Of a stretch of 64,000 nucleotides of DNA, positions 20,943 through 37,014 are shown piece by piece. A program made the position numbers and the translations under genes. The notes under the pieces are model-generated. The model saw only the letters and a list, made by a program, of their open reading frames with translations. It had not been told where the DNA came from and did no database searches. The stretch is taken from NCBI GenBank assembly GCA_964584745.1, contig CAZPBB010000001.1:55-64054 (forward strand). The letters are read 5' to 3'. The DNA is from an uncultured Bacteroidaceae bacterium. Lineage in GTDB: Bacteria; Bacteroidota; Bacteroidia; Bacteroidales; P3. How positions within the stretch are numbered: the first letter of the stretch is position 1; each line of letters begins with the position of its first letter.

Positions 20943-21686
20943 ATGGAAACGATGCAGTCTATAGTTCTTGGTATAGGAATACCATTGTTTGGGATTTTTT
21001 TGGTATTATATACTATAGGGGTAACTTCAAGTAAAAAGGAAGTTAAATATCTTCAGGCATGGATTGGATGTGATAACTTGAAGACTGCCTGTGCAGGATC
21101 TCATTATGAAGATATTCCCGCTGTGGAACGAAGTGTTTCTTTAGCACATAATGGTTTTAAAACTCCAGCAGGAAAGGTGTTGGATACAAGTGCTTATGAT
21201 GGTTATGTGGTGAAAGGCAACTCAATGCAGTTTTGCAATATTCATACTGATGATTTGGCCTTTGTTAGGAAGGATTTTCGTATTTCCGATTTGAAGAAAT
21301 TCCCTTCAGTTGTGGTTATTCGAAATACGGCAGCGAAAAAGGATGAATGCCAACATAAAGTACGTCGAGCTTGGGCTATTTTGCAAGGTTCAGTATCGGA
21401 TGAAGAAATCAAGAACTGTGTTAATACAATAATGACTACATCAAAATATGATGAGTTAAGGCAGAGGCTTGGAGATAAATATGAAAGCGATGAAGTTATG
21501 ATATCTGATATGATGGAGAGATGGAACAAGTTTAAGGGGACGCATTCAGACTCATTGAGAGAAGATATTGTTATATCTACAACATATGATGTAGATAAAC
21601 AGCGGATACATTTCTCTGTACATCGGGCATCTTCGATTATTGGAGTTGTTGAATTTAGAACTGACTTAAAGTCGATTGCGGCATAA
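20943..21686 (+). CDS. membrane-anchored S24 (LexA/signal-peptidase-like) peptidase-domain protein
   Basis: N-terminal TM helix (IVLGIGIPLFGIFLVLYTIGV). S24-like Ser motif GYVVKGNSMQF..I..DDLAFV and a downstream Lys region (HKVRRAW). Assigned by eye. Confidence 0.55.
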   Translation: METMQSIVLGIGIPLFGIFLVLYTIGVTSSKKEVKYLQAWIGCDNLKTACAGSHYEDIPAVERSVSLAHNGFKTPAGKVLDTSAYDGYVVKGNSMQFCNIHTDDLAFVRKDFRISDLKKFPSVVVIRNTAAKKDECQHKVRRAWAILQGSVSDEEIKNCVNTIMTTSKYDELRQRLGDKYESDEVMISDMMERWNKFKGTHSDSLREDIVISTTYDVDKQRIHFSVHRASSIIGVVEFRTDLKSIAA

Positions 21687-21710
21687 AATAATAGATTTGT
21701 AATCGAAGTC

Positions 21711-21752
21711 AAGAGCCTCGCATTTCATCAGAAAGCGAGGCTCTTTTGTTTG
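21711..21752. terminator. bidirectional hairpin terminator
   Basis: 11-bp stem AAGAGCCTCGC (21711-21721) / GCGAGGCTCTT (21735-21745), followed by TTGTTTG. It sits between convergent genes. Confidence 0.7.
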
Positions 21753-21764
21753 CGGACATTGTGG

Positions 21765-23123
21765 TTATTCCCTCACCAACGTCACATACATCTTCCCTTT
21801 CCCTCCGGTGGTCGTCGGCAAATAGTATTCCACTTCGAAGACCAGCGTGTCGCGTGTGAGATACTCCGCCGCCGCGCTGATGCGGAAGTTGTCCACATAG
21901 ACATCCACTAGGCTGTTGCCAGCCGGAATCCTTACCGAAGTCGGTTGCGTGCTGTTGCCGGTGGCGTTGGACACCATCACACGCGTCTTATACGACCGCT
22001 TTAGTTGCGCCACCGCCGTCAGGTTCGTGAACAGGTCGCAGGACTTCGTCTGCTTCAAGATTTTCATTTCCGGCATGGAAAACAGTTCTGTCGTAGGAAT
22101 CGGCGCGGTGTAGATGCCCCGCAGCTGGTCGTTCGCCTCACATACGTTCTGCTCCTTGCCCGCCACCTTGCCGATGCTGTCCCATAGCAACCTCTCTTCC
22201 TGAATCCGGGTGTCGCTCTCCTGAAACAGGAGGGCTTCCAGTGCCTCGATATCCTTGCCCAGCAAGACATCGGTTTCCAGACGTCTCTGCCGTTCCGCCG
22301 TCAACGAATCCAGCACAAGCCGCACGTCCGCCGTCTCGGTCTGCCGGAGGGCGGCCAGACTGTCCCAAATGCGTTTATCCTCCGCCATACGGCGCTTGGT
22401 CTCCGCCATCAGGCTGTCCAAGATGCGCAGGTCCTCTTCCTTACGCTTGATGGCTTCTTTGAGGATGGCCGTATGATCCATGGAACCCGAATCCGGATGG
22501 AAATGCTCGATCTCCTGATGGAAAAGACGTATCATCTTAGAGGCCGAGTAGTAGATGTCGCTGGCGGGATCCTGGTTGTCATCGAATACTTTCCCCTCCA
22601 GGCCCTGGGCTGTGACGGCCTGCTGCGCCGTTTCGGCCGTCGTTGCGTGCGCTGCCGTTTCCGCCTCCTTGGCCGACAGGGCGGTGGCGGCTTCTTCCGC
22701 CGTTTGCGCCCTGTGCGCATAGAGCGCGGTCGGGACGGCCGTGATCGGGACAACCGCCAGTTCGGAGGCACCGTCAAGCACCCTCAAGGTGGCGGCACGG
22801 CTCCAATCGATGGTATCGAAACGACCGTTGACGGGCGTTCCGTCGCCCAGATACACGTGTACTTGGCCGAGCGCATCGGTCGTTACCGCATGGCGTTCCT
22901 TGTAAATGGTCGTGCCCTCCTGTTGCAGTTCGAGCGTGAGGGTCAGTGCTTCATCGGCACGCACATAGCCGCGCTCATCACGCAGCACGGCCTGGTATTT
23001 CACCGTCCGTGCGGTGGCCGTGTTCTCGATGGCCTTCTTGCCACCCATTGCCGGGGCGGCCACCGCCATGCCGATCGAGCACAATAGGCTCAGCATCGGC
23101 AAAAGCAATCTTTTTCTTTTCAT
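21765..23123 (-). CDS. secreted fibre-like protein with central coiled coil (last gene of the fibre module)
   Basis: 452 aa. Signal peptide. N-terminal beta domain (VKYQAVLRDERGYV ... IDWSRAATLRV). An Ala/Glu-rich and heptad region, then a C-terminal beta domain. Confidence 0.7.
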   Translation of the reverse strand: MKRKRLLLPMLSLLCSIGMAVAAPAMGGKKAIENTATARTVKYQAVLRDERGYVRADEALTLTLELQQEGTTIYKERHAVTTDALGQVHVYLGDGTPVNGRFDTIDWSRAATLRVLDGASELAVVPITAVPTALYAHRAQTAEEAATALSAKEAETAAHATTAETAQQAVTAQGLEGKVFDDNQDPASDIYYSASKMIRLFHQEIEHFHPDSGSMDHTAILKEAIKRKEEDLRILDSLMAETKRRMAEDKRIWDSLAALRQTETADVRLVLDSLTAERQRRLETDVLLGKDIEALEALLFQESDTRIQEERLLWDSIGKVAGKEQNVCEANDQLRGIYTAPIPTTELFSMPEMKILKQTKSCDLFTNLTAVAQLKRSYKTRVMVSNATGNSTQPTSVRIPAGNSLVDVYVDNFRISAAAEYLTRDTLVFEVEYYLPTTTGGKGKMYVTLVRE

Positions 23124-23173
23124 GATATGGTCTTTTGTATTTCAATTGTTTGTTTTGTCGCTTCTTTCCTTGC

Positions 23174-24106
23174 CTACAGGCGTTTTTTCTTGTGAGGCAG
23201 GGCGACTTGGAACGTCAGGTGATGGGCGGCCACCCCTGCCATGATGCCGTTGAAGCGGAACGGCATCAGGAAGCGGTAGCCGAGGTGGCAGCACTTGCCG
23301 AAGTCAAATCCTATGCCGAGACCGGCCGTCTGCACGTCTTTCGTGCCACGGTAGAGAATATCTGCGTGGAAGAACCCGTAACGGGCGTTCAGCCCCGCTG
23401 TCACCGTGTGGCCGGTATGGTCGTAGGCGTAATAGGTATAGTTGAGATACGGCAGGAGAGTCGCCATTCGGCTGCGGTCGTGGGTGTAGGCTCCCAGATG
23501 TTGTTCGTAGAAGAACGTGCCGCCTACCGAGAAATCATTACCCGGCAAAGCGGCGGCACCTGTGGCGGCGAAGCCGAGGCGGTAATCCTCCCGTGCCTGA
23601 TAGACGAAGCCCAACGATACCGCCGGTGTGTGGAAGTATCGGTTGTAGTTTATGTCGGCGTAGTCCGGGTGTTCCGTGACTACATCGTGGAAAGCATAGT
23701 ACCGATAACCGAAATCATAGGTTAGGTTGGCGAGCAGCTGCCAGTCCGGGGCGACACGGAGGTTGGCCGTCAGTCCCACGGCACCGTGCACGTCATAACG
23801 AAAGCCGCTATGGGTGCTATATACGTCGCCGTGGAACGTCAGGGCGGCATGGTCGTAGGTCAGGGCGGTCGGCGTGCCGGCCAGCGACAGGTGATAGGTC
23901 TGCGGATGCCCTTTGATGGACATGTACTGTTGGGTCGTGTTCAGTTCCGCGCGGAAACGGCTTGCCTGTACCACATGGAACAACGGCGAAAGATCCGCCA
24001 GACGGGCGGTGGGCAAGGAGGGAAGAACAAAATCCTGTGCCGGGCTCAAAAACGGCAGAAACAGGCTTGAAATCGCTGATAGGAATATTTTGACGGTCTT
24101 CTTCAT
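23174..24106 (-). CDS. PorP/SprF-like outer-membrane beta-barrel protein (second copy)
   Basis: ATG at 24106 (MKKTVKIFL). Signal peptide ends in SPAQ. About 310 aa, with an alternating beta pattern and a C-terminal AAHHLTFQVAL motif similar to the other copy. It sits directly downstream of a CTD-like protein. Confidence 0.55.
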   Translation of the reverse strand: MKKTVKIFLSAISSLFLPFLSPAQDFVLPSLPTARLADLSPLFHVVQASRFRAELNTTQQYMSIKGHPQTYHLSLAGTPTALTYDHAALTFHGDVYSTHSGFRYDVHGAVGLTANLRVAPDWQLLANLTYDFGYRYYAFHDVVTEHPDYADINYNRYFHTPAVSLGFVYQAREDYRLGFAATGAAALPGNDFSVGGTFFYEQHLGAYTHDRSRMATLLPYLNYTYYAYDHTGHTVTAGLNARYGFFHADILYRGTKDVQTAGLGIGFDFGKCCHLGYRFLMPFRFNGIMAGVAAHHLTFQVALPHKKKRL

Positions 24107-24113
24107 CGTAACA

Positions 24114-24830
24114 TTATTTACGTTCCAATACTTCCACAAAACCCTCCTGACGGATTATCGTGCTGCCGCGGTGCAGCGCGACCCGGTAATAGTATGTGTC
24201 GGGTTTTCGTTGGGAAAAATCGAAGTCATTGCGGTAGTCTTGGCTGTGGTAGATGACTCGGCCGCTGCGGTCGAACAGGGTCGCTTCCGCACGCTCGAAG
24301 TCGGCGAGGTTCAGGATTTTGAAGCGGCTCAGGTCGTGGCCGTCCAGTACCACCAGATTCACGATGCTGGCGGTGGATGCCTGGGGAGGAACCGGCGGCT
24401 TGGGCAGGGTCGTATCTCCCGGTGTGATGGGCAAATCCGGAGGCGTGGGTATGTCGGGAACGGAATCGGAAAGGAACCGCACAAAGAGGGAATCGGTACG
24501 GAGGCCTTTATGGTAAGGCTCGCGCACGTGGTAGCGGTACCAGCCGCTCCGGGTGGCCACCGCCGTGTCGAATTGGAACGGCGCGTAGAAACTGGCCGCT
24601 TCGTGGGTGTCGAAGACGAAGGTGTCCGCGTCCTCTATCTCCACGGTGTCCACGATGGGAGGATTCACCCACAGGTTCGGCTGCTGGTAGCCGCTCGTCA
24701 GGCCGGGTGCGCCGTCGGCCGGGGCACTCAACGACTGGAAATCGCCGAAATTGGACATCGTGCGTTGGGCGAAAACCGGTAAACACGCCCCTATGATATA
24801 AAGTGTTGTCAGAATTTTGTTTGTTCTCAT
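24114..24830 (-). CDS. secreted protein with degenerate T9SS type-B C-terminal-domain-like end
   Basis: ATG at 24830 (MRTNKILTTLY). The C-terminus, FKILNLADFERAEATLFDRSGRVIYHSQDYRNDFDF...DTYYYRV...GFVEVLERK, resembles the type-B CTD but lacks the NGDGxND motif. Confidence 0.5.
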   Translation of the reverse strand: MRTNKILTTLYIIGACLPVFAQRTMSNFGDFQSLSAPADGAPGLTSGYQQPNLWVNPPIVDTVEIEDADTFVFDTHEAASFYAPFQFDTAVATRSGWYRYHVREPYHKGLRTDSLFVRFLSDSVPDIPTPPDLPITPGDTTLPKPPVPPQASTASIVNLVVLDGHDLSRFKILNLADFERAEATLFDRSGRVIYHSQDYRNDFDFSQRKPDTYYYRVALHRGSTIIRQEGFVEVLERK

Positions 24831-24834
24831 CTTT

Positions 24835-26343
24835 TTACCAGCCAAAATATGAGTTGTATTTGAACGCAAGCACGATAAAGTCAAAGGCACAGTCCGTGAG
24901 GTTTCCTGATTGATCATACAAGTAAACGTTTAAAGAACCACTGGATTTGCCGCCAATTGAGGCTGTGACGCCCTGTGTGGTAGGAATAGGGATAAATATG
25001 TTGTCTATTTGGCCGGAGATACTCGCAAATCTATAGACTCCTGTACGCGATCTATAAACACTTGCTATATACCCAGCGGATAAAGTAAGTGTTCCGTCTG
25101 CCGCTACATGTCCGCCGGCAACGAGATAGGGCATATGAGAAAAACGATTATTAATGTCGTCAAGGTCGATGCCGAGATTAGTTCGTGCTGCCGCCGCCGT
25201 GGTGGCTCCCGTGCCTCCTTGATTTACGGGCAGAGGATTTTCGGAAGCGGTGCCCATCCCTGTAAAATGTACGCTTCTGGCATGGATTTCTATGAGGTCG
25301 TCCACAGGTTCGGATACATAGACATAATCCCCGTCCCCGAAATTCAGTTTGTTGCCGTAAGCACTTGAACCTTTCAGGCGCAGGTTTCCTGTTATGGTCG
25401 GGTCTCCATTTAAAGTGACGGAGCTCTTGATGGTGGGATTGGGATACGTCCCGGTCAGGTCGCCTCCGGCAGTGCCCGTCGGGGTACGGCTGTCCGTCAG
25501 TCGGCTGTCGCTCGAGGTTACGTAGTTGGATAGGTTGCTCTTGACGTATGCCGTGGTGGCTATCCTTGTGCTGTTGGTGGCTGTGGTTGGAGTCGGAGCC
25601 GTGGGGCTTCCCGTCAGAGCCACAGAACTCTTGATGGTCGGGTTCGGATACGTCCCGGTCAGGTCGCCTCCGGCAGTGCCCGTCGGGGTACGGCTGTCCG
25701 TCAGTCGGCTGTCGCTCGAGGTTACGTAGTTGGATAGGTTGCTCTTGACGTATGCCGTGGTGGCTATCCGCGTGCTGTTGGTGGATGCCGCCGGAGTCGG
25801 TGCGGTTGGGCTGCCGGTTAAGGTCACGGAGCTCTTGATGGTCGGATTGGGATAGGTCCCTGTCAAATCGCCTCCGGCAGTTCCCGTCGGGGTACGGCTG
25901 TCCGTCAGTCGGCTGTCACTCGTGGTTACATAGTTGGTCAGATTACTCTTTACATACGCCGTGGAGGCTATCTTGGCGGAACTGTCCGTAGATGTCGGGG
26001 TCGGCGCGGTCGGGCTTCCCGTCAAGGCTACTGAACTCTTGAGGGTGGGATTGGGATAGGTCCCTTTCAAATCGCCTCCGGCATTGCCTTTGGGAACACG
26101 GCTGTCCGTCAGGCGGCTGTCGGTATTGGTCACGTAGTTCTCGATAACATAGGTCTTGGTGGCCATCAAGCGCATGCTGTCGCGCAATTGGGCGATGGTG
26201 TCGCGCATGCGGGCGGCCAGCAGGCTGTCTTCGACAAAACGTGTCCGCTCCTCCTTGGCCAGACGTGTCTGTTGCTGATTTTGGGCGGCCAATCCGCTGC
26301 ACAGGATGCCAAGCAGCAGGCCGATGTAAAGGATTCTTTTCAT
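24835..26343 (-). CDS. secreted phage-tail-fibre-like repeat protein
   Basis: 502 aa. Signal peptide. 3.5 tandem 68-aa repeats containing GSPTAPTP..NSTRIATTAYVKSNL. A later NQGGTGATTAAAARTNLG motif. Both are motifs I recognise from phage tail fibres. Confidence 0.8.
   Translation of the reverse strand: MKRILYIGLLLGILCSGLAAQNQQQTRLAKEERTRFVEDSLLAARMRDTIAQLRDSMRLMATKTYVIENYVTNTDSRLTDSRVPKGNAGGDLKGTYPNPTLKSSVALTGSPTAPTPTSTDSSAKIASTAYVKSNLTNYVTTSDSRLTDSRTPTGTAGGDLTGTYPNPTIKSSVTLTGSPTAPTPAASTNSTRIATTAYVKSNLSNYVTSSDSRLTDSRTPTGTAGGDLTGTYPNPTIKSSVALTGSPTAPTPTTATNSTRIATTAYVKSNLSNYVTSSDSRLTDSRTPTGTAGGDLTGTYPNPTIKSSVTLNGDPTITGNLRLKGSSAYGNKLNFGDGDYVYVSEPVDDLIEIHARSVHFTGMGTASENPLPVNQGGTGATTAAAARTNLGIDLDDINNRFSHMPYLVAGGHVAADGTLTLSAGYIASVYRSRTGVYRFASISGQIDNIFIPIPTTQGVTASIGGKSSGSLNVYLYDQSGNLTDCAFDFIVLAFKYNSYFGW
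25399..26157. repeat. 204-bp tandem repeat, about 3.5-4 copies, inside the fibre gene
   Basis: The marker TCGGCTGTC recurs at 25501, 25705 and 25909, with a degenerate copy near 26113 (period 204 bp). Long stretches between copies are identical. Confidence 0.85.
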
Positions 26344-26355
26344 GATATACTATAT

Positions 26356-27264
26356 TTAATTTCTGTAATAATCGTAATCGCGGTCTTTGTCATTGCGTTT
26401 GAAGATGAGGCTCAGGCGTATCTGATGCGATAGGAACTGCGTGCCGGCGCGTTGGATCCGGAAAGCCGTGAAGCCGCATTGGTAACCTAATTCCACCGCC
26501 TCCTTGATGTGGACGGAGGCACCGAGGTGCAGCCGGTTGCGGCTGTCGTAATCCACATCGAGCCCGAGGAAGCGGAAGAAGATGCCGCTCAACCGGAGTT
26601 GCCCGTATAGGCCTTGGTAAGATCCGGCGGCGGTATAGGAACCGTATCCGGATACCGCCAAGCAGGCTTTACGAGTGGGGTCGGTGCGGTAGCCGGCGCT
26701 CACCGCCACGGGCGTTTCGGCGAAGCGCTGCGCCAGGCGCGGTGAGAACACCGACACCGAAAACCGCTCGTTATGCAGCGCAAGCCCCACCGACCCGGCG
26801 AAACGGTATCGGTTGGGGGCGAGGTCGTTCAGGAATGGGTCGCCGCCGTTTTCCAGCAACCGCGCCATATCGATATGGTCGTATTCCAACCCGGCGCCCA
26901 GAGCGGCGGTCAGATACAGGGCACCGGCACGGCGGCCGTGGCCGACCTGAAAGCGCAATCCATAGCGCAGCTGGGCGGAAAACGAATTTTCGATGTTGAA
27001 GTAGGTGTTGGAGGCACGCAGGGCGGCGAACATATAGCGTCCCGCCGCCTGAAAGGGTACGGCGATATGGAGGTCTGCATCTTTCTGGGCACCGCTGAAC
27101 CCGAGGTTATGCAGCTCCACGACGGCATCGGCGGAGGCGTGCTGCCGTTCCCCCATCGTGGCGGGGTTCAGGTGGCGCAGACGGGCATCCGATTGGGCGA
27201 GGCCTGCACCGGGCACAACAAGCAGCGCCCACAACGGCAGCAGGGCTATCTTCTTTCTCTTCAT
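26356..27264 (-). CDS. PorP/SprF-family T9SS-associated outer-membrane protein
   Basis: 302 aa. Signal peptide ends in GLAQ. LNPATMG near the N-terminus. Beta-barrel-like alternation and a C-terminal LSHQIRLSLIF motif. It sits directly downstream of the type-B CTD protein. Confidence 0.7.
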   Translation of the reverse strand: MKRKKIALLPLWALLVVPGAGLAQSDARLRHLNPATMGERQHASADAVVELHNLGFSGAQKDADLHIAVPFQAAGRYMFAALRASNTYFNIENSFSAQLRYGLRFQVGHGRRAGALYLTAALGAGLEYDHIDMARLLENGGDPFLNDLAPNRYRFAGSVGLALHNERFSVSVFSPRLAQRFAETPVAVSAGYRTDPTRKACLAVSGYGSYTAAGSYQGLYGQLRLSGIFFRFLGLDVDYDSRNRLHLGASVHIKEAVELGYQCGFTAFRIQRAGTQFLSHQIRLSLIFKRNDKDRDYDYYRN

Positions 27265-27269
27265 GGCCT

Positions 27270-28235
27270 TTATCTTAAAATGGTGAGCGTGGCGCGGCGG
27301 TACGGCTCGCCGTTCTTGGTGGTGTAGAAAACATAGTAGTAGGTGCCGGCGGGAAGCCCCTCTCCGTCGAAGTCGTTAAGATAGGGGCTCTTGTCATAGA
27401 CCGTCTTGCCGTGGGTGTTCAGCACCAGCAGGCGGCTGTCGGGGTAGTTCTTGGCCGTTGGGACTTCGAAGCAGTCGTTGATGCCGTCGCCGTTGGGCGT
27501 GATGGCCGCCGGAAAGTAGATGGAGGGCTCCTCAAACGCCGTCAGAGCCTCCACGCGCGGCAGGGCGGTGGCGGAAAGGAGGCCGTCGGCATAGGTACTC
27601 GCTTCGGCGGGACGGAAGTTCTCGTCCTGGTAGGTGCTGTAGTAGAGGTAGGGACGGGCCAGGTCGCCGCGGTGGTTGTCGGGCAGGGACATGGCGGCGG
27701 CACGCAGGGGAACGGCTTGCTCGAGCAGCAGCACCCGGTCGGCGGAGGCTTTGCCCTGCCGGTAGGAGGGGCGGAAAGCCAGCGAGAGCGTCTGTGTGTG
27801 CGCCTCGTCCGCCTGCAAGGAAAAACCAAGGCCTGTCTCGATGGACAGGGCCGGCGAGAGGCTTACCTGTTTGGTAAGCAGGCTGCCGTTGGAGGACGTG
27901 AGTTCGCCGCCTGTTTCGTACAGGTTGCCGCCGAGGGCAGCAGTGGCGAGCAGATCGGAAATACCCTCCACGCAGTAGAGGTTGGCCGCTTCGGACAAGT
28001 AGAGGTCGTTGCCGCCGTACAGGCGCAGGTTGCTCACCGCCGGCATATGTAGCACGGTGCGGGTCAAATCCATATAAGACAGGGGCGATACTTGCAGGCT
28101 GTCGGCTTCCGCTTCCATGCCCGAGAGGCAGAGGGCGGTGTGGTCGCCCACAGACACCGGGAGCGTGATGCGCAGCTGGGCGTAAGCTGTGGCTGTGGCG
28201 ATGGCTAAGAGGCAGGAGAAGAGGATTCTTTTCAT
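27270..28235 (-). CDS. T9SS type-B sorting-domain (gliding-motility-associated C-terminal domain) protein
   Basis: The ATG at 28235 (MKRILFSCLL) is 1 nt after the upstream stop. C-terminus: ITPNGDGINDCFEVP ... LLVLNTHGKTVYDKS ... LPAGTYYYVFY ... ATLTILR. Confidence 0.8.
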   Translation of the reverse strand: MKRILFSCLLAIATATAYAQLRITLPVSVGDHTALCLSGMEAEADSLQVSPLSYMDLTRTVLHMPAVSNLRLYGGNDLYLSEAANLYCVEGISDLLATAALGGNLYETGGELTSSNGSLLTKQVSLSPALSIETGLGFSLQADEAHTQTLSLAFRPSYRQGKASADRVLLLEQAVPLRAAAMSLPDNHRGDLARPYLYYSTYQDENFRPAEASTYADGLLSATALPRVEALTAFEEPSIYFPAAITPNGDGINDCFEVPTAKNYPDSRLLVLNTHGKTVYDKSPYLNDFDGEGLPAGTYYYVFYTTKNGEPYRRATLTILR

Positions 28236-28236
28236 G

Positions 28237-30441
28237 TTAGTAGTGGCAATAGGATTTAGACTTGATGATGAAATAGACCGCATGGAAAGGAGGACGGTTC
28301 TCGTGGGATTGGCTGCCGCCGGTCTCTCCGAGGAAGGTGTTGGTGTAATGTCCATTTGTAAGATTGGTGGTTCTTTCCTCTTCTGTAAGTACTGGAGGCC
28401 AACAAGCTCCACCGCCCCCAATTTGGTTTACTTTCCTTGAACGATAGACCTTATGACGATGTTTAGGCATCTGGTCGATGGTCAGGGTCACTTCTTTTGC
28501 GCCACCGGTGGCACCGTTGACATACTGTTCCAGTTCGGAGTTGCCGTTGTCGATGCCGGCGTTGACCGCTACGGGAAAGCGGTTCTGCATTTGGGTGAAG
28601 TAGCACCAGCCGGCGGCTTTCATTTCCTGGGTCAGTCCATTTCTACCGGTAATCAGTACCGTGCCTTCGGGATAGGCGGTGGTGGTGGCGGCCTGGTAGG
28701 CTTGATCCATCGCCTTGAGGTTGCCTACCGTCGGGATACGGTTCGAGGCGCTGGGTGTGCCGGGTGGGTACGGGGTATTTTCCGAGAGCAGCAATCCGCT
28801 GGGGAAGACCGCGTTGCCTTTCAGGTGTAGGGAGGGTTCGTCCCAGCTGCCGACCACATCGTTCGGGCAGCGGTCTTCGGAATAGTTGCCGGTACCTTTG
28901 TAGAAGTTATGGATGTCGGTGTAGGCTTCCTTCTCCTCAACGGATACATGCACCGATTGATTGTCGGCATTCAGGTCGTACAGGTAGGTGGGGCGACCTT
29001 TCAGGTCATGGTAGCTGCCTGTGCGCGCCGCCTGCGAAAAATCGGGATGGCCGGGAACATCGTTCAGCGAACAGCTCAGCCACAGCCGCGGCCAGGAGGT
29101 GGGCGCGTTCTGGAGGTCGTTCAGCTGGTTGCTCTCGATAAAGGTCCGCTGGAAGTCGGGTTTGTCCTGCAAATCGTCGTAATTGCCTGTATAGACCACT
29201 TCCGCATAGTCGGGGCGGTCGGTGAGCAGGTTGAAATCGTTCTTTTGGGCGGCCGCGTGCAGCGTGTCTTCCAGATATTCCGCCGCCGTGTTCCAGTTGT
29301 ATTTGTCGTTCTCGCTCACCAGTTGGTAGTAGCCCGAGGCCGCGTTGATGGAGTTTGCGTAGTCGGCCAGGCTTGTCTTGATGCCGGTGGCGGCGTAGGT
29401 GTTGTATTGGTTCAGTTCGGCCTGGGTCAGGGTCTGGTGGTCGGGGTCGGTCTTGAGGTCTTTCAGCGCGGTGGCGATGACGGGCTGGTTGCGCAGGTCG
29501 TTGTAACTGCCCGAGAAGTGCCCCATGGCGGAGGCCCTGTCCCAGCGGAGGATGGCTTCGTCGCTTACCAATTGGGCGGTATAGGTCTGTTGCAGGTCGG
29601 CCAGCCGTGCCGGAATCGGGGTGGCGGCATGGTCATCCCACGCCTGCCGATCGGCCAGGGTGGTATAGAGATAGTATTCGTCGGTCTGGAAATCGCTTAC
29701 CTTGGTCGGGATGGCGGTGTTGGCGTGGGCGGTGTAGCGGGTGGCCTGTGTTTCGGTAAGCAGCCTATGCAGGCTGTCCTGTTCCAGCTCGCGCAGGGCG
29801 GAGGGCAGGTAACGTTCCGTCATGGCGTTCCACCGCGTTTTGTCGGCATCCGACACGGTGCGGTAGAACTCATCCTGTTCCGCCTCGCTCAGGCTGGTCG
29901 GTAGGTAGGGCTTCTCCGCCAGGTCTTCGTAGCGGCCCGTCACCGCCACGGCTTTGAGCCCCTGCAGGGCTTGCGGCAGTTCGGGCAGGTTCTTCAGGTC
30001 GTTGTAGTCGCCCGTGGTGGCCACCTTGGCGAACGATACCGCCTCGCCGCCCGGGGTGTTGTCGGGCAGGGTGGGGCGGTTGGCCAGGTCGTTGTAGTTG
30101 CCCGTCACGGCCACGGTGGCGAACCGCAGCTGGCGGCCGGTATCGGACAGCACGATGGAGGGATTGAGGTATATCCACTGCCCGCCGTCCCAGCTGTAGA
30201 GGCCGGCGAGGGAATCGGTCTGATAGACCAGCAGCCCCTCGCAGATAGCGTCCGTCCGCAGGAGGTTTCTTTGGGCGGCGGTCAGACGGGGCAGCAGGAT
30301 GCCTTTTTGGGTGGAACGGATTTCCACGGCCGCCGCGTGGGGCGGCGTGATATGGCTGGTGCCGTCGGCGTTGAAGCCGATTTGCTGGGCAAGGGCGGCA
30401 AAGGGGAGGAAGCCGATAAGGAAGAGGAGTATCTTTTTCAT
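28237..30441 (-). CDS. secreted tail-fibre-like protein with C-terminal phage tail-collar-type domain (paralog 3)
   Basis: ATG at 30441 (MKKILLFLIGFLPFAALAQQ). Conserved N-domain. (T/S)GxYxDLxN(R/L)P repeats. C-terminal PEGTVL...AGWCYF...RFPV...GGAKEVTLTIDQMPKHRH...HENRPPFHAVYFI. Confidence 0.85.
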   Translation of the reverse strand: MKKILLFLIGFLPFAALAQQIGFNADGTSHITPPHAAAVEIRSTQKGILLPRLTAAQRNLLRTDAICEGLLVYQTDSLAGLYSWDGGQWIYLNPSIVLSDTGRQLRFATVAVTGNYNDLANRPTLPDNTPGGEAVSFAKVATTGDYNDLKNLPELPQALQGLKAVAVTGRYEDLAEKPYLPTSLSEAEQDEFYRTVSDADKTRWNAMTERYLPSALRELEQDSLHRLLTETQATRYTAHANTAIPTKVSDFQTDEYYLYTTLADRQAWDDHAATPIPARLADLQQTYTAQLVSDEAILRWDRASAMGHFSGSYNDLRNQPVIATALKDLKTDPDHQTLTQAELNQYNTYAATGIKTSLADYANSINAASGYYQLVSENDKYNWNTAAEYLEDTLHAAAQKNDFNLLTDRPDYAEVVYTGNYDDLQDKPDFQRTFIESNQLNDLQNAPTSWPRLWLSCSLNDVPGHPDFSQAARTGSYHDLKGRPTYLYDLNADNQSVHVSVEEKEAYTDIHNFYKGTGNYSEDRCPNDVVGSWDEPSLHLKGNAVFPSGLLLSENTPYPPGTPSASNRIPTVGNLKAMDQAYQAATTTAYPEGTVLITGRNGLTQEMKAAGWCYFTQMQNRFPVAVNAGIDNGNSELEQYVNGATGGAKEVTLTIDQMPKHRHKVYRSRKVNQIGGGGACWPPVLTEEERTTNLTNGHYTNTFLGETGGSQSHENRPPFHAVYFIIKSKSYCHY

Positions 30442-30448
30442 AGGATTG

Positions 30449-32602
30449 TTATTTATTGGAACGGCAGGCGTCTTTGCTTTTCTTGAGGATATAGAGGGCG
30501 AAGTAGGGGGGACGGTTCTCGTGGGCTTGGTTGCCGCCGACGGGTATGATGGCAATGTCAGAATAAATAGTACTGTTTTCATTCCCATTTCTACCTGGAA
30601 TACGAGATAAATATCCTGTTCCTCCATCTTTCACACGCACCTTTATTGTATTATTAGCGGTCTCATGTATATGTGCCGGCAGTTCCTTGCCGGTCAACAC
30701 GTGTGTTTCCTCGCCGCCGGTGGCACCGAGGCTGCCGAAAGTGCCGTTGCCCAATCCTACGGGAAAACGTCCGGCGATGCCTTCCAGCGGCTCCCAGCAG
30801 TCGGGAATGCCCGTATTGTTGACATCATACCAGAAGATGATGCTGCCCTCCGGCACCAAGGCATCGGCGAAGGAATCGACGGTGGCCTGGGCTTTCTTGT
30901 CCAGTTCGGCGGCGAGCTTGAAGGTGGCGATGGCCTCGGGATTGTCGGGATGGTAGTTGCCGGTGCTGATGGTGGGCTGTCCTTGCAGGATGATGCCCCC
31001 TTTCAATTTCAGTTTTTTGTAAGAACCTTGGAAATCACTGCCGGAGCGGGCGGCTGTGCTGTTGAGCGTGGAGTGAAGCTCCTGCAGGTTGTCGTGCAAG
31101 GTCTTGGAGACATGCACGGCATAGGTGTTTTCCTTGTAGTGGCTCATCTTTCCAAATTCGGCCGCATCGTCCAGATCGTCGAAGTTGCCCGTCACGGCTA
31201 CCTTGGTATACTCAGGTGTGTCGGCCAGTTGCTGGAAGGTGATGCTGTCGCGGCCTTTGTAGAGTTCATCCGGGCGGCCGTTCAGGTCTTCGTAGCGGCC
31301 CGTCACCGCCACGGGGGCCCAGGTGGGATAGTCGGTCGACAGGGAGTTGATGTACTCGAACTTGCCCGTGGTGGCCAAATCCTTGCTGTAGACTTGGTAT
31401 TTGTACGAAGACGGCAGGTCTTCGTAGCTGCCCGTGCGGGCGGCGCGGGAAATAGCCGGATACTCGCGGGCGGCACCCGCGTTCCAGTTGTTCACCTGGC
31501 GGGTGGTGGGTATCTGATGGTCGGCATCCGACACCAGGTCGGTGAGGTAAGGGCGCGACACACGCCCCGTCATGGAACTCCACCGCGCCTTGTCGTCGGC
31601 CGAAACGGTCTGATAGAAATCGTCGCTCAGGATTTGAGAGAGCGAATCGGGAATGACGGGGGTATTGACCAAATCGTTGTAATCGCCGCTGAAACCTACG
31701 GCGGTAACGCTCGCGTCCCAGGAGGAGGCTTCCTGTTCGGTCACGATAAGGTGGCTGTAGTCGGTGGCGAGGTCGGACACATAGACCGGGATATGGCGGT
31801 TGGCGGCTTCGGTAAAGGTGGCGATCTGGGTGTGGGTGAGGGTGCGGTGCGCGCTGTCCTGGATCAGTTCGCGCAGTTGGGTCGGGATATACCGGTCGGC
31901 GGCGGCTTCCCAACGCCGTATGTCGGCATCGGTGACGCTCTGATGCGTGTAGTCTTCGCTCAGGTCGGCAATCCGGGTCGGCACGGCCTGCCGGGTGGCA
32001 GTCTCCCATACCTTGACCGTGGCCGAATCGGTGAGCATGTAATACATATCGCTCTCAAAGTCCTTCAAGTGGGTGCGGATTTCCGGAAATCCGCTCAAAT
32101 CGGTGTAGGAGCCGCTGTACGCCACCTGGTGCAGGGTGGGGATATCGGTAAGGATGACGGGCAGGTTCTTTAGGTCGTTGTAGTCGCCCGTCACCGCTAC
32201 GGGGGCGAAGGCCAGGGGCTCGCCGTGGCTGCCGGCAAGGATGACGGGACGGTTCTTCAAATCGTTGTAATCGCCCGAGAAAGCCACCTCGGCAAAGTTT
32301 GTTGCCGAAAGGCTGTCGCCGTTTCCGCTCCCAATCGGCATCAGGTTCATCCACGCCCGGCCGTCCCACAGATAGAAACCGGCGCGCTGGTCGGTCTGAT
32401 AGACCGTCAGCCCGGCCAGCGTGGAGTCGGCGGCGAGCAGGCATTTCTGGGCATAGGTCATACGGGGGATCAGGATGCCTTTGGGAATTTGTATATCCAC
32501 GGCCACCGCCTCGTGCTGTGGGGCGGTGCGATACCCTACCGTCATCTGGGCGGTGGCAGCAAAAGGCAGGAAACCGATAAGGAAGAGAAGTGTCTTTTTC
32601 AT
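30449..32602 (-). CDS. secreted tail-fibre-like protein with C-terminal phage tail-collar-type domain (paralog 2)
   Basis: 717 aa. Its signal peptide is nearly identical to that of paralog 3. C-terminal PEGSIIFW...DCWEPL...RFPVG...GGEETHVLTGKELPAHIH...HENRPPYFALYIL. Confidence 0.85.
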   Translation of the reverse strand: MKKTLLFLIGFLPFAATAQMTVGYRTAPQHEAVAVDIQIPKGILIPRMTYAQKCLLAADSTLAGLTVYQTDQRAGFYLWDGRAWMNLMPIGSGNGDSLSATNFAEVAFSGDYNDLKNRPVILAGSHGEPLAFAPVAVTGDYNDLKNLPVILTDIPTLHQVAYSGSYTDLSGFPEIRTHLKDFESDMYYMLTDSATVKVWETATRQAVPTRIADLSEDYTHQSVTDADIRRWEAAADRYIPTQLRELIQDSAHRTLTHTQIATFTEAANRHIPVYVSDLATDYSHLIVTEQEASSWDASVTAVGFSGDYNDLVNTPVIPDSLSQILSDDFYQTVSADDKARWSSMTGRVSRPYLTDLVSDADHQIPTTRQVNNWNAGAAREYPAISRAARTGSYEDLPSSYKYQVYSKDLATTGKFEYINSLSTDYPTWAPVAVTGRYEDLNGRPDELYKGRDSITFQQLADTPEYTKVAVTGNFDDLDDAAEFGKMSHYKENTYAVHVSKTLHDNLQELHSTLNSTAARSGSDFQGSYKKLKLKGGIILQGQPTISTGNYHPDNPEAIATFKLAAELDKKAQATVDSFADALVPEGSIIFWYDVNNTGIPDCWEPLEGIAGRFPVGLGNGTFGSLGATGGEETHVLTGKELPAHIHETANNTIKVRVKDGGTGYLSRIPGRNGNENSTIYSDIAIIPVGGNQAHENRPPYFALYILKKSKDACRSNK

Positions 32603-32616
32603 GGGTCAGTTTGGAG

Positions 32617-34959
32617 TTAGTTGTTGGGACAGTTGTCGTGGGTGTAGTAGATGAAATTGATGACGTAATAAGGAGGCAGGTTGTTGTGAGGGGCGGTGGG
32701 GTAGCCGGTGGTGAAGGGTTGTTCTCCGTAGTAGGAATATTCTCCGTTTTCTTCTCCGATGGAGTTGTAACTGACAGCTCCAATGTCTTCGTATTCGTCA
32801 TATACACGATTTGGATCAGGAGGATTGTCTGATCCGCCAGGAGAAGGAACGTTATAAGCATTGGGATTTTTATCACTCTTATGAATTACGGCTTGATGCC
32901 GATGTTTGGGCATCTGGTCGATGGTCAGGGTCACTTCTTCCGCGCCTCCCTCGGTGTTGTAATCTACTTGCGGTAGTATATAAGGGCTCATTTTCGCACC
33001 AACGGGGAATCTGCCTTGAAGTTCTGTGAACAATTTCCAGCAGCCATCGTGCACGTCTTTGCCACGGGGCGGGTCGTTGCTGCCCCACATCATCACCGTA
33101 CCCTCCGGAATGATTTCCATGTTGGCTTTGGCTTGTTCGACGGCGAGCCTGTCCAGTTCGGCGGCGATCTGTATGGTGGGAACATGGGCATCTTGGCCAG
33201 TGGAGTTGAAATATTCCGCGGCAAGAGCTTCGGGGTCTTTGTCGGGGGGGCGGATGGTCGGCACACCCTCCAAGGCGATGCCGGTGGCGAGTTTCAGGGT
33301 GTTGAAGGTGCCCTGCACGTTATGGCTGCTGTATTCGGAGGGCGCATAAAGACCGCTTTCCAGCAGGGTCTGTTTGGCCGCGCGCCAGTTGCGGCGGTCG
33401 GTGCCGCTTACATAGACGGCCTTGCCGTCGGCATCCTGCAGGAAATCGCTCAGGTATTCGGGGGTGTCGCTCATATCTTCGGCCTTGCCGCTGCTGACGA
33501 AGTTCGACAGGCTCGGTTTGTCAAAAAGCAGGTCGTTATACGACAGCGACGACAGGAAACCGCTGTTGGCGGCCTGCAGCTTCGGTACGGAGGCTTCGTC
33601 CAGGTCGGCGTAGTTGCCCGTCACCGGGGCGGTGCTGGGCGAGAAGGTGGGGCGGTTCACCAGGCTCGACCACGTGCCTTGCCGCCCGAAAGCGGAGATA
33701 GACCGGTAGTTGTCCATATGGGTGGGGTCGCCGTGCAGGATGAAGGCGTGCTCGTTGTCGTCCTCATAGGTGGGGATGGGGCGTACCGTCATCGAATCCC
33801 AGCGCGCGATCTCGGTCTGGGACACAAGACGGTAATTCATGTTGTCGTCCTTGAGCTCGCTCAGTTTGGTGGGCACCGTGCGCCGGTAGGCCGAATCCCA
33901 GTCGTCGCGTTCCTTGTAGGAGATGATCTGATGCAGTTCGTCGGTCGTGAACTGGCTCAGGTGACGGGGAATGTCGGGCAGGTCGGACAGGTCGGCATAG
34001 TTGCCGTCGAACGCCATGGCCGCCGCATGGGTCGTCCAACGATTATATTGCTGTTCGTTGATGGTGCGGTGCGTGCTGTCTTCCTCCAGATCGCGCAGCA
34101 TGGTGGGGATGGTTCTCGCGGAGGCGGCCTCCCAACGCCGTATGTCGGCATCACCCACCAGCTGCCCGAACTCGTCCCATTCCAGTTGGGCGGTATGGGT
34201 GGGGATGATGCGGGTGGCGGCCTCGTCGTAGCCGTACCGCTGCACATAGGATACGGTCTGACGGAACTCATCCGTCTCCAGGTCGGACAGGGCGGTGGGC
34301 ACCTTGCGGGCCGCGCCCGTGTTCCAATAGGCGATTTCATCGGTCGTGAGGGTGCGGTGCGCGCTGTCCTGTGCCAGCTCGCGTAACCGGGTCGGCAGAA
34401 ACGGCTTCTCCGCCAGGTCTTCGTAGTTGCCCGTATAGGCCACCCGTGCGATGTCGCCCAAGTCGGAGATGATGACAGGACGGTTGATAAGGTCGTTGTA
34501 ATCGCCGCTGGTGGCCACCTTGGCGAAGGAGGTGGTGTCGTCCTCGCTGCCGGAGGGCAGTTCCGGGCGGTTCATCAGGTCGTAATAGTCGCCGCTGTAG
34601 GCCACTTTGGCGAAAGCGAGAGGTTCGTCCGAGGTGCCGGCATCAGGTATCAGGATGGGATTGAGGAACAGCCATTGGCCGCCTTGCACCAGGTAGTAGC
34701 CCAGGTTGCGGTCGGTCTGGAACACCAGCAGGCCGTCCAAGGTGGAATCCACCTTCATCTTCATCCGCTGCATATACGTCAGCCGGGGCGTGAGCACCCC
34801 TTTGTCGGACGCCTGGATCTCGATGACCGCCGCCTCGTGCGGCGTGATATACCCTGTGCCGTCGGCGTTGAAGCCGATGCCCTGTTGGGCGTGGGCGGCC
34901 GTTCCCGGCAACAGCGGAAGGAACAGCAGGGCAAAAAGCAAGCGTTTCTCTTTATTCAT
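32617..34959 (-). CDS. secreted tail-fibre-like protein with C-terminal phage tail-collar-type domain (paralog 1)
   Basis: 780 aa. The ATG at 34957-34959 overlaps the last 8 nt of traQ. C-terminal PEGTVMMW...GCWKLF...RFPVG...GGAEEVTLTIDQMPKHRH... a long insert ...HNNLPPYYVINFI. Confidence 0.85.
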   Translation of the reverse strand: MNKEKRLLFALLFLPLLPGTAAHAQQGIGFNADGTGYITPHEAAVIEIQASDKGVLTPRLTYMQRMKMKVDSTLDGLLVFQTDRNLGYYLVQGGQWLFLNPILIPDAGTSDEPLAFAKVAYSGDYYDLMNRPELPSGSEDDTTSFAKVATSGDYNDLINRPVIISDLGDIARVAYTGNYEDLAEKPFLPTRLRELAQDSAHRTLTTDEIAYWNTGAARKVPTALSDLETDEFRQTVSYVQRYGYDEAATRIIPTHTAQLEWDEFGQLVGDADIRRWEAASARTIPTMLRDLEEDSTHRTINEQQYNRWTTHAAAMAFDGNYADLSDLPDIPRHLSQFTTDELHQIISYKERDDWDSAYRRTVPTKLSELKDDNMNYRLVSQTEIARWDSMTVRPIPTYEDDNEHAFILHGDPTHMDNYRSISAFGRQGTWSSLVNRPTFSPSTAPVTGNYADLDEASVPKLQAANSGFLSSLSYNDLLFDKPSLSNFVSSGKAEDMSDTPEYLSDFLQDADGKAVYVSGTDRRNWRAAKQTLLESGLYAPSEYSSHNVQGTFNTLKLATGIALEGVPTIRPPDKDPEALAAEYFNSTGQDAHVPTIQIAAELDRLAVEQAKANMEIIPEGTVMMWGSNDPPRGKDVHDGCWKLFTELQGRFPVGAKMSPYILPQVDYNTEGGAEEVTLTIDQMPKHRHQAVIHKSDKNPNAYNVPSPGGSDNPPDPNRVYDEYEDIGAVSYNSIGEENGEYSYYGEQPFTTGYPTAPHNNLPPYYVINFIYYTHDNCPNN

Positions 34960-35425
34960 GGTCGGTTAGGGTGTTATCGTCCTTGTCTTCTTCTTTTTTG
35001 TTGAACTGCAAGGTGGTTTCTTGCGTATGCCCCCAGCTATCCATAAAGGTGAGGGAGAGCGTGTGCTGGGCGGTGGCCGTGCCCCAGTCGGGCAGGTAAT
35101 GCATCCGGAAGCGGAGACCCGACAGGAGGTATGGGTCGTTCGGCACCAGGGCGGTGTCCTGTCCCACCCGGAGCGCGCCGCTGCCGGAAGTCGGAAAATA
35201 ACGCACGTAATAACGGGTGCAGTCGCATAGGTAGCCGTCCTCTCCGGGCAGGATCTCAAAGCGCACTTCGGCGGCGTGTCCCTCCGTCAGGATATTGCTG
35301 TAGGGCAGGTTCTGCACCGAAAAGTCAAAATCCTGCTTCACGTCGATAGCCGCGCAGCCACCCAGGATAAGCAGGGGGACGAGTCCGGAAAACAAGGCTC
35401 TTTTCTTTCTCAATGTCCTTTTCAT
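34952..35425 (-). CDS. traQ: conjugative transposon lipoprotein TraQ (DUF3872-like)
   Basis: 157 aa. Lipobox ILGGC. YYVRYFPTSGSGALRV...PNDPY...FRMHY matches my memory of the TraQ/DUF3872 pattern. ATGA overlap with the traO stop. Confidence 0.7.
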   Translation of the reverse strand: MKRTLRKKRALFSGLVPLLILGGCAAIDVKQDFDFSVQNLPYSNILTEGHAAEVRFEILPGEDGYLCDCTRYYVRYFPTSGSGALRVGQDTALVPNDPYLLSGLRFRMHYLPDWGTATAQHTLSLTFMDSWGHTQETTLQFNKKEEDKDDNTLTDHE

Positions 35426-35976
35426 CGTATCATGATTTTAAGACCCAGGCCGGCTTCGGTATGGAACCAGCCCACGGTACTGTTGCCGAGCACTTTCTCA
35501 CGCACCCGGAGTAGCAGCACGTAACGGTCGTTCAGATAATATTCCATTTCTACACCCAGTGCACCGCCGAACACGAACCTCGACCGGTCGAGGATTCTTG
35601 CCCCGTCGGACAGGCGGTAGCGGCTCCAGTTGACCCACTCATAGCCGAGGATGCCGTCAAGTCCCACCGAGAGGTAAAAGGAACGGCGCGGCCCCTGTAG
35701 GAGACGCAGGTAAAAACCGCCTTCGGCCGTCAGCTCCGACAGGGGCAGTTTCTGCGCATAGTACCGGTCGGTGTTCTGCAGGTAGTTCAGGCCGAAATTC
35801 CAGTGGTGCTTCCTTTTGGTGTAGGTGCTGTAGCCGGCATTCACGAAAAAGCCCGTCTTTTCGGTGATGCCCGCCGTGGCCGTGATGCCGCCCATGCGCG
35901 GCAGGTAACGCTGGCCGTGGGCGGTGGCGCATACGAAAAGCAAGGCGAGCAGGGGGATAAGGTGTTTCGCTTTCAT
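35422..35976 (-). CDS. traO: conjugative transposon protein TraO
   Basis: 184 aa. Signal peptide, small beta-barrel-like composition, and a position between traN and traQ. Confidence 0.7.
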   Translation of the reverse strand: MKAKHLIPLLALLFVCATAHGQRYLPRMGGITATAGITEKTGFFVNAGYSTYTKRKHHWNFGLNYLQNTDRYYAQKLPLSELTAEGGFYLRLLQGPRRSFYLSVGLDGILGYEWVNWSRYRLSDGARILDRSRFVFGGALGVEMEYYLNDRYVLLLRVREKVLGNSTVGWFHTEAGLGLKIMIR

Positions 35977-35994
35977 CTTCTCTTCAAGGTCTTT

Positions 35995-36999
35995 TTATTG
36001 CACGACGAATTCCGTCAGGCGGCGCGCCCGGATCAGGTCGTCGTTCTCGATCGTCATCCACTGATGACGGCCGCCGTCTTTTTCGTGCAGGTCTATCTTG
36101 AGCAGCTTTTCCTTGGGCAGCGTGAAGATCGGGAAGCAGAACACGCTCCGCTGCACATCGTTGCCCTCCACGCGCGTGACGTAGTTGTAGGCACGCACCG
36201 GCTGCAGCACGATTTCCTGCGTGGTGGTGCGTTTCACCAGCTTCTTATCCACCATCTTGAACGACAGATAGTCGATGTTGTAGGGAACGGCCGTGTTGTT
36301 GCGCAGTTCGGTATGCACATACAGCAGGTCGTTGTGCGTGTAGATGCCTTTCACCAGATACTGCACCCCCAGCAGCTTGCTGCCGATATGGCGCAGGCGG
36401 CGGATGTTCTGTTGGTGTATCGACTGCATGATCATGCGCACCAGGGTGGGGCTCTCCTGGTCGAGTTCCTTGAGAAACACTTCCATCGAGTTGTTGGGAC
36501 GGTTCTGCGCCGAGCCGTCGTTGAGAAAGTCTTTCATCTCGATGTTGAGTTTGAGAGGCTCCCGCTCGAAGCGCACGTTGAACGAGTAGAAAGAACCGTC
36601 CTCTGTGATGACGGCAAGATTCGTCTCGCCGGGGAAATAAGCCGATGCGGACTTGAGGCGCAACACGTTCTGCGCGTCCCCGGCCTTGCCGGCGATGACG
36701 TTGGCGTTGCCCAAATCCACATAGCGGATATTCGACGGAAAGATGATGTGGGTGGTCTTCTCATAGCACACCTCCAGGGCGTAGGGCGGTATCATCCTGT
36801 CCCAGCTGAGGGTCTTGGAATAACCGTCGAAGTAATCGCCGCTCCGGTTGTCGTCGGCTTCATAGGCGTTGTCATAGACACGGAGCGGAAGAGCCGAGGC
36901 ACTGTCGGTCAACAGGCTCACCCCCGCCTGGTTTATCTGGGCGGTGGCCGGCAAACCCAAGGCTATGCTTAGTAAGATGATGAATCGGATGCGTTTCAT
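35995..36999 (-). CDS. traN: conjugative transposon protein TraN
   Basis: 334 aa with a signal peptide. Size and synteny (after traM) are typical of CTnDOT-family TraN. Confidence 0.8.
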   Translation of the reverse strand: MKRIRFIILLSIALGLPATAQINQAGVSLLTDSASALPLRVYDNAYEADDNRSGDYFDGYSKTLSWDRMIPPYALEVCYEKTTHIIFPSNIRYVDLGNANVIAGKAGDAQNVLRLKSASAYFPGETNLAVITEDGSFYSFNVRFEREPLKLNIEMKDFLNDGSAQNRPNNSMEVFLKELDQESPTLVRMIMQSIHQQNIRRLRHIGSKLLGVQYLVKGIYTHNDLLYVHTELRNNTAVPYNIDYLSFKMVDKKLVKRTTTQEIVLQPVRAYNYVTRVEGNDVQRSVFCFPIFTLPKEKLLKIDLHEKDGGRHQWMTIENDDLIRARRLTEFVVQ

Positions 37000-37014
37000 G
37001 GTATAGGGTTATGT

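Follow-up and report, generated by a model that had tools for sequence, protein, structure and literature searches.

Phage-fibre-like genes and type-B CTD/PorP-like gene pairs behind traQ in a Bacteroidales integrative and conjugative element

The module and its junction with the tra operon

We analysed a 64-kb stretch of contig CAZPBB010000001.1 from an uncultured Bacteroidaceae bacterium (the window, in which all coordinates given here are positions). It carries an integrative and conjugative element (ICE) of the CTnDOT family, with a tra operon on the minus strand and, directly behind traQ, a module of nine genes on the same strand (g1-g9; Table 1). The products are three long fibres (g1-g3), two small proteins with the C-terminal domain (CTD) of type B that belongs to type IX secretion systems (T9SS) (g4 and g7), each followed by a PorP/SprF-like barrel (g5 and g8), a further fibre-type protein (g6) and a coiled-coil protein (g9). 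The module is physically fused to the 3' end of the tra operon. The last codons of traQ read GAC CAT GAA TAA and contain the ATG of g1 (34959-34957), giving an overlap of 8 nt, and the gaps between the following genes, recomputed from the table of open reading frames (ORFs), are 14, 7, 1, 5, 12, 4, 7 and 50 nt. A signal peptide is present at the N-terminus of 9/9 products, and in 8/9 it ends in the Bacteroidetes-typical site between A and Q, as read from the translations. Overlap and gaps are identical to those of an initial annotation, which had proposed an ICE-borne module of phage-fibre-like proteins and type-B CTD/PorP pairs fused to the tra operon; layout, protein families and synteny all agree with that description.

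The module is closed after g9 by a terminator-like hairpin with a perfect 10-bp stem, extended to about 15 pairs (-24.4 kcal/mol, z = -5.2); 0/200 shuffles folded equally well, so that the strong hairpin of the initial annotation stands. A scan of both strands of 21000-36000 found 7 terminator-like sites, against 14.4 expected from shuffles, and none of them lies at the traQ/g1 junction or in an intergenic gap of the module. The Bacteroidetes -33/-7 promoter consensus (TTTG...TAnnTTTG) occurs at 7 sites in the window and at 0 between 21.7 and 47 kb, a result of limited sensitivity because the region upstream of traA has no site either; a sigma-70 promoter scan is uninformative for Bacteroidota. 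Neither scan shows, between traQ and g1, the terminator or promoter that the initial annotation had named as evidence against its reading. The GC content of the module (57-61%) equals that of the tra genes; the cargo islands have 40-47%.

A Pfam scan identified a CTnDOT-type operon with TraA (ParA-like), TraF, TraG, TraJ, TraK, TraM, TraN, TraO and, at its end, TraQ (PF12988), which confirms the earlier reading of the operon. Representative E-values are 2e-207 for P-loop_TraG, 1e-35 for Transposon_TraM, 9e-95 for DUF4138 and 4e-44 for TraO; TraJ of the window was recognised through its orthologues. The tra orthologues in four related loci described below (L001, L002, L081 and L083) received the same assignments. 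By its tra gene order, relaxase and coupling protein the element belongs to the CTnDOT family, whose mating-pair formation system is of type B (MPF-B). The window starts with chromosomal housekeeping genes (peptidase M28, PheS, cyclophilin), and at about 9 kb the GC content shifts from 0.48 to 0.58, adjoining genes for tRNA-Met and tRNA-Arg. The two tRNA genes (7.0 and 8.5 kb), the GC shift and the housekeeping genes at the start place the module inside the ICE, and suggest that its left end lies near 9 kb, at tRNA-Arg. On one side of the module is the tra operon, on the other an accessory region with SSB, primase, DUF5131 and LpxK. No integrase was found among the window ORFs scanned, and the element continues beyond the right window edge. 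No T9SS core gene is present in the window. As initially annotated, genes for sheath, tube, baseplate, capsid or terminase are also missing among the roughly 50 larger window ORFs scanned with Pfam.

Table 1. Coordinates of the module genes and of other features of the window
Feature	Position	Strand	Length	Description
tRNA-Met	7009-7083	-
tRNA-Arg	8483-8555	+		Candidate for the integration site and the left ICE end
Hairpin	21711-21752	-		Terminator-like; closes the module after g9
g9	21765-23123	-	452 aa	Secreted, alanine- and heptad-repeat-rich (coiled coil), C-terminal beta region; conserved last module gene
g8	23174-24106	-	310 aa	Second PorP/SprF-like barrel, very divergent
g7	24114-24830	-	238 aa	Second small type-B CTD protein
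g6	24835-26343	-	502 aa	Phage tail-fibre repeats and a distinct C-terminal domain
g5	26356-27264	-	302 aa	PorP/SprF-like outer-membrane barrel; putative shuttle and anchor of g4
g4	27270-28235	-	321 aa	Signal peptide, all-beta N-terminal region (~215 aa), T9SS type-B CTD
g3	28237-30441	-	734 aa	Fibre 3; ~34% identical to g1
g2	30449-32602	-	717 aa	Fibre 2; ~32% identical to g1
g1	32617-34959	-	780 aa	Fibre 1
traQ	34952-35425	-	157 aa	Last canonical tra gene; lipoprotein-like; PF12988 at 2.3e-25
tra operon	35422-47328	-		TraA, (TraB-E), TraF, TraG, 333-aa DUF4134-tailed protein, long TraJ, TraK, TraM, TraN, TraO
Relaxase	51681-52997			6e-26
Coupling protein	53017-55029			YWFCY and T4SS-DNA_transf domains

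Fibres, CTD proteins and barrels

Fibre g1 is composed of a signal peptide, a PTL_trimer domain (residues ~27-105), shaft repeats of the form VAxTGxYxDL, helical repeats and a tip of the gp10/gp12 type with an HxH motif (~590-780). PTL_trimer (PF26696) covers about the first 80 mature residues; precomputed matches to it exist for g1 and all of its full-length homologues, and g1 residues 27-105 used as the sole query retrieve PF26696 proteins only. A profile of this N-terminal domain gave no match among the PDB sequences. The family is a curated and widespread one (4,726 cluster representatives), often in 2-9 copies and in combination with Peptidase_S74, YadA_head or collagen/Lcl_C modules. The shaft repeats are common to the fibres and to many phage contigs.

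The tips resemble those of phage receptor-binding proteins. A profile built from the last ~190 residues of g1-g3 (profile A4) matches the solved trimeric tail-fibre tips 9nxk (6e-11) and 9qgo (4e-5) and, weakly, the T4 proteins gp10 (2fkk, E 0.13) and gp12. Two histidines (H686 and H688, forming HxH) and a PP motif are invariant in the tips, and g1-g3 match the PHROG families tail, tail fibre and tail collar fibre. The tail-collar-type end initially assigned to the three paralogues is therefore borne out by fibre-tip structures and by PHROG, and not by the Pfam Collar family (PF07484), which none of the three matches at E <= 0.1. The nearest Pfam family is Gp10_C (PF21939), with 26.0, 19.8 and 21.3 bits, below the cut-off of 27. 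Among orthologues of g1, residues 1-480 show 80-98% identity and the final 300 show 44-77%; the tips thus appear to be the fastest-evolving part of the fibres. A conserved N-terminal part with a variable tip is the pattern expected for a receptor-binding tip.

The CTD of g4 matches CHU_C (PF13585; 1.2e-18, 67.5 bits, cut-off 27) and passes TIGR04131 (35.2 bits, cut-off 35). The barrel g5 lies just at the cut-off of PF11751 (22.4 against 22.3 bits) and reaches 27 bits for TIGR03519 (cut-off 90.6); PF11751 is matched by 6/10 members of the g5/g8 family, at best with 3e-13. In the first annotated pair the type-B CTD protein is upheld, and the barrel gene behind it is PorP/SprF-like, marginally by its own score and more clearly through its family. 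For the second pair the agreement is partial. The CTD of g7 is above the cut-off for CHU_C (PF13585; 2e-7, 31.5 bits, cut-off 27), without a match to TIGR04131, and its similarity to g4 is confined to the CTD. The barrel g8 has no Pfam match and is PorP-like only through a weak TIGR03519 hit below cut-off (1.8e-5, 24 bits) and an hhalign comparison with the g5 family (83% probability, E 9e-6). The AlphaFold2 model of g4 is confident (pLDDT 89). Its N-terminal region found no significant match in fold searches (best PDB match at E 6e-3 and TM 0.18; BFVD matches on the CTD only), so that the idea of an adaptor function for this region gains no structural support from them. The same BFVD search returned several proteins of ~190-200 aa from uncultured phages with the gliding-motility/type-B CTD fold, and Bacteroidota phages may therefore also exploit T9SS signals.

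The g6 translation contains the classical tail-fibre motifs reported initially, and it matches PHROG tail-fibre families (1e-21) and the tail fibre 9k09 in the PDB (6e-5). A tandem repeat at 25424-26122 comprises 3.4 copies of a 204-nt unit (68 aa) with 85% matches. Fibre length therefore probably varies with repeat number; the g6 orthologue in L001 has 419 aa, against 502 aa here. The last gene product, g9, belongs to no family and has a weak match to Bdello_MAT_N (0.007); orthologues are located after PorP in L004/L083, L001 and L084.

Linkage to traQ in related elements

Full-length homologues of g1 are rare, about 37 in 5.8 billion clustered proteins. In nine diverged ICE lineages (fibre identity 29-75%), the core of fibre, CHU_C and PorP genes lies behind traQ on the same strand, in most of them directly, so that the co-occurrence check called for in the initial annotation has a positive result. 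The common order TraO, (TraQ), 2-3 PTL_trimer fibres, CHU_C and PorP was found in nearly every context long enough. In particular, traQ, 2-3 fibres, CHU_C and PorP are present in this order in L001/L003 (fibre 75% identical to g1; 9/9 module genes kept), L004/L083 (48%), L002 (34%), L081/L082 (29%), L084/L085, where a second CHU_C set is present, and L245. The gap between traQ and the first fibre is 8-43 nt where gene calls exist; L004 was read from stop-to-stop ORFs only. The linkage to traQ is looser in L006, a fragment, and in L007, where a hypothetical gene and a topoisomerase III gene stand between traQ and the fibre. The CTD gene adjoins the PorP-like gene in the window (gaps of 5 nt for g4-g5 and 7 nt for g7-g8) and also in L001, L002, L081, L083, L084, L245, L010 and L008, and every locus examined has one CTD/PorP pair per 1-3 fibres.

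The same gene order in independent, diverged elements shows that the module is not a chance arrangement. Moreover, the divergence of the module proteins parallels that of the more variable among the tra proteins. Identities to L001 are 64% for TraQ, 73-75% for the fibres, 69% for g4 and 73% for g5. The corresponding values are 50%, 45-48%, 43% and 52% for L004, and 44%, 34-40%, 31% and 37% for L002. Judged from these comparisons, the module seems to be a backbone-like accessory that prolongs the tra operon at its 3' end in one Bacteroidales clade of CTnDOT-family (MPF-B) ICEs. A locus scan with eight sequences was keyed on the generic shaft repeat, and most of its 78 loci share that repeat only.

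A distant parallel exists in L009 (917-13724), from a metagenome-assembled genome (MAG) of Sediminibacterium sp. (Chitinophagia). There TraM and a TraN-like gene, preceded by a PorV-like gene and an IS605 TnpB gene, lie before a small protein weakly matching the type-A CTD (Por_Secre_tail); next come a PTL_trimer fibre whose tip is Peptidase_S74, and then a topoisomerase. Tra genes, fibre and T9SS parts may have come together here independently, in another class.

Some of these loci have features of their own. In the two-fibre lineage a gene with an LPD3 domain (PF18798, 332-351 aa) lies between traO and traQ (L081 8422-9477; L245 8484-9482). The contig of L246 (28-13549) carries a PorP fragment and three PTL_trimer fibres together with AbiEii and a Rep3 replication initiator, and the Rep3 neighbour suggests that the module may also ride on plasmids. 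Two contigs are probably mis-binned or mislabelled: that of L003, a 75%-identical Bacteroidales ICE deposited as a MAG of Ruminococcus flavefaciens, and that of L008, with fibre, CHU_C and PorP genes, binned as Bdellovibrionota.

Other genes of the element are unusual as well. TraJ (39096-41147, minus strand) has double length (683 aa), with a C-terminal extension containing two direct repeats of ~110 aa (SKFRQVSGTTLEWVGKQLRRPKLNH...); a long TraJ (709-749 aa) is also found in L001 and L083, and one of normal size (~360-375 aa) in L002, L081 and L245. At 41161-42162 (minus strand) lies the gene for a secreted helical protein of 333 aa whose membrane tail is DUF4134 (TraE-like). Proteins of 315-374 aa with this tail, as ORFs or gene calls, occur in the seven fibre-bearing loci where the position could be checked; in classical CTnDOT-type loci DUF4134 matches are confined to ORFs of at most 148 aa. 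We rejected an enlarged TraE as the identity of the 333-aa protein, which sits at the TraH/TraI position, with a candidate TraE of normal size upstream of TraF. Between the module and the low-GC cargo, a full-length gene for LpxK (lipid A 4'-kinase; PF02606 1e-70) is located at 19039-20175 (plus strand). It is an unusual case of a housekeeping lipopolysaccharide gene on a mobile element and could be a second, envelope-modifying copy. The regions 48933-49562, 59402-61414 (plus strand) and 55031-56239 (minus strand) encode two MuF_C-domain proteins, one of them with hexapeptide, beta-solenoid and MORN repeats, a HEPN/RES-domain protein and two DUF3945 proteins, a set that resembles polymorphic-toxin or conflict-type ICE cargo.

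Possible role and relation to known systems

To our knowledge, no pilus or adhesin has been described for Bacteroidota (MPF-B) conjugation. We tentatively favour, at a little short of an even chance, the reading that the module is a T9SS-anchored adhesin array for mating-pair formation, transcribed together with the tra operon by read-through. On induction of transfer, g1-g9 would be transcribed from the tra promoter. The fibres g1-g3, which consist of phage tail-fibre modules, would be exported by the Sec pathway and be trimeric. The CTD proteins g4 and g7 would leave the cell through the host T9SS and be held on the PorP-like barrels g5 and g8, by the rule known from SprB/SprF and PG1035/PorP. 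The fibres, which have no CTD, would dock via their conserved N-terminal parts on this element-specific anchor, and would be either carried out along with it or captured after export; this is the weakest step. The variable tips would then bind surface structures of other cells, form or stabilise the contact between donor and recipient, and bias the range of recipients. The wider proposition, that MPF-B conjugation in this ICE clade uses a phage-derived fibre array shown via the host T9SS on private PorP-like anchors, with the tips setting the recipient range, is possible, and we hold it with more reserve.

Several observations weigh against an adhesin array for mating. We know of no precedent for CTD-less partners that ride through the T9SS or dock on a T9SS anchor. 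A T9SS CTD is absent from g1-g3 and from 10/10 other PTL_trimer proteins sampled, which makes the T9SS dependence of the fibres an indirect inference. The AlphaFold2 monomer of g1, calculated from a 38-sequence alignment, is uninformative (pLDDT 48), as expected because the fibre would be an obligate trimer. The module is also restricted in its distribution. A TraO-seeded metagenome scan yielded only classical human-gut CTnDOT-type elements (TraO ~42% identical), which served as a negative control. In this mutually redundant set, 34/34 loci for which 3 kb or more downstream of TraO is available lack fibre, CHU_C and PorP. Classical CTnDOT-type ICEs therefore transfer without the module, and its co-occurrence with traQ, which the initial annotation had proposed to check in other CTnDOT-family ICEs, holds for one clade and not for the classical elements. 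In addition, a Bacteroidales MAG (L010) has a PorP-CHU_C-fibre trio whose neighbours are DnaB, DprA, Rho and PFOR genes; as no tra gene occurs within 10 kb, the unit can work without conjugation. Finally, one tip adhesin of the type V pili of Bacteroides ICEs, diversified by a diversity-generating retroelement (DGR), was dispensable for transfer by experiment (10.1101/2024.11.15.621889).

The last two points speak for the strongest alternative, that the module is a cargo adhesin with which the host cell binds mucus, food particles, host tissue or biofilm partners, with no role in transfer. The wide occurrence of PTL_trimer fibres outside ICEs also fits. We regard this explanation as rather unlikely, though the fact that ICE adhesins are known and one of them is dispensable for transfer counts in its favour. 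However, cargo normally lies in variable hotspots, and here position, orientation and tight spacing are kept at TraQ identities of 34-64%. Co-divergence with the tra genes and an equal GC content argue in the same direction, and expression induced by transfer would suit a constitutive colonisation factor poorly.

It is improbable that the fibres are exported or assembled by the envelope complex of the conjugative type IV secretion system (T4SS), as a substitute for a pilus or as its tip, with the CTD/PorP pairs serving a separate function. This would account for the missing T9SS signal on the fibres and for the position of their genes, which abut genes of the outer-membrane part of the T4SS (TraN, TraO and TraQ). 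The DUF4134-tailed protein of 315-374 aa in the fibre-bearing ICEs examined, and the doubled TraJ in some of them, also count in its favour. However, the CHU_C/PorP pair comes after the fibres in every locus long enough, including L010, which has no tra genes; this argues for fibre, CHU_C and PorP as one unit. Moreover, no T4SS is known to export Sec-dependent trimers of 700-900 aa.

Surface exclusion or self-recognition, in which the array would mark carriers of the element and block mating between donors in the manner of PrgA or TraT, is more improbable still. The location with the tra genes would suit it, and g9, a secreted coiled coil, has the general shape of PrgA as far as its sequence tells. 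The known exclusion factors, however, are single small proteins and not three to four fibres of receptor-binding type with fast-diverging tips, and family searches of the module proteins found no homology to exclusion proteins. We rejected a prophage or tailocin remnant, which, like an anti-phage decoy, is very improbable: that the fibres are made of phage-type modules is clear, but the window ORFs scanned include no virion genes, 9/9 ORFs are intact in an order kept in many elements, all nine products have Sec signal peptides, which virion proteins lack, and no full-length relative is found among the 80 best IMG/VR matches.

The module may bear on how Bacteroidota conjugative elements contact their recipients and choose among them; in gut Bacteroidales these elements are the chief carriers of antibiotic-resistance and fitness genes. 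It is a genetically tractable candidate: its three to four fibres are separable and have variable tips, and they share an apparent operon with two private T9SS anchor pairs and the transfer genes. If the array does act in mating and is displayed through the host T9SS, it would couple a T4SS conjugation machine functionally to a T9SS for the first time. Swappable, fast-evolving tips would then set the recipient range in gut communities and explain differences in host range between ICE clades, and engineered conjugative delivery in microbiomes would gain targeting modules that can be swapped. Should the fibres turn out to be dispensable for transfer, the module would still be a new two-component display of CTD-less trimeric fibres, of interest to T9SS biology.

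The initial annotation regarded the system as one without earlier description, and we found none of a tra-linked fibre/T9SS module in the literature searched. Its parts can each be compared with known systems. In SprB/SprF and PG1035/PorP, cargo with a type-B CTD depends on a cognate PorP/SprF-like protein, the product of the adjacent gene, and stays bound to it (PMC9143113, PMC12618676). Likewise, in g4/g5 and g7/g8 a type-B CTD gene is immediately followed by the gene of a PorP/SprF-like barrel. However, the module's CTD proteins are of small size (238-321 aa), with no adhesin domain that can be recognised, its adhesin candidates are other proteins, which lack a CTD, its genes belong to a mobile element and stand in a tra operon, and g8 is only marginally PorP-like. 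With the receptor-binding proteins of phage tail fibres (T4 gp10 2fkk and gp12 1ocy/1pdi; 9nxk, 9qgo) g1-g3 share the HxH tip, the VAxTGxYxDL shaft repeats and the conserved proximal and variable distal parts. They differ in their Sec signal peptides, in being ICE-encoded with no virion genes alongside, and in having PTL_trimer in place of a baseplate-attachment domain.

The mosaic adhesive trimer (MAT) fibres of Bdellovibrio are encoded by the cell and resemble phage fibres; they are chimeric trimers, their tips are interchangeable, and they act in recognition between bacteria (PMC10769870). The module fibres are likewise cell-encoded, chimeric and phage-fibre-like, and would be trimers with exchangeable tips that serve such recognition. 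They differ in phylum, export route and genetic context (an ICE tra operon), and the single sequence link is the weak g9 match to Bdello_MAT_N (E 0.007). In Bacteroides ICEs, DGR-diversified tip adhesins of type V pili are encoded in the cargo region and vary by retroelement mutagenesis (10.1101/2024.11.15.621889). Like the adhesin candidates of the module, they are variable and carried by Bacteroidales ICEs, but the module has no DGR, and its fibres, putatively trimeric, are fused to the tra operon.

Adhesin genes that accompany a mating channel are represented by three further systems. In pCF10, PrgA, PrgB and PrgC are co-transcribed with the T4SS genes; in F-like plasmids TraN pairs with outer membrane proteins; and in R64 a shufflon provides alternative PilV tips. 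As in these systems, the adhesin candidates of the module share an apparent transcription unit with the mating channel, and its three to four fibres are comparable to the variant binding modules of R64 PilV. No relationship in sequence or fold connects them to the module, and display here would need the host T9SS and not a sortase, a T4SS or a type IV pilus. The parts of the module are thus of known kinds, and what is new is their combination and their conserved place in the tra operon.

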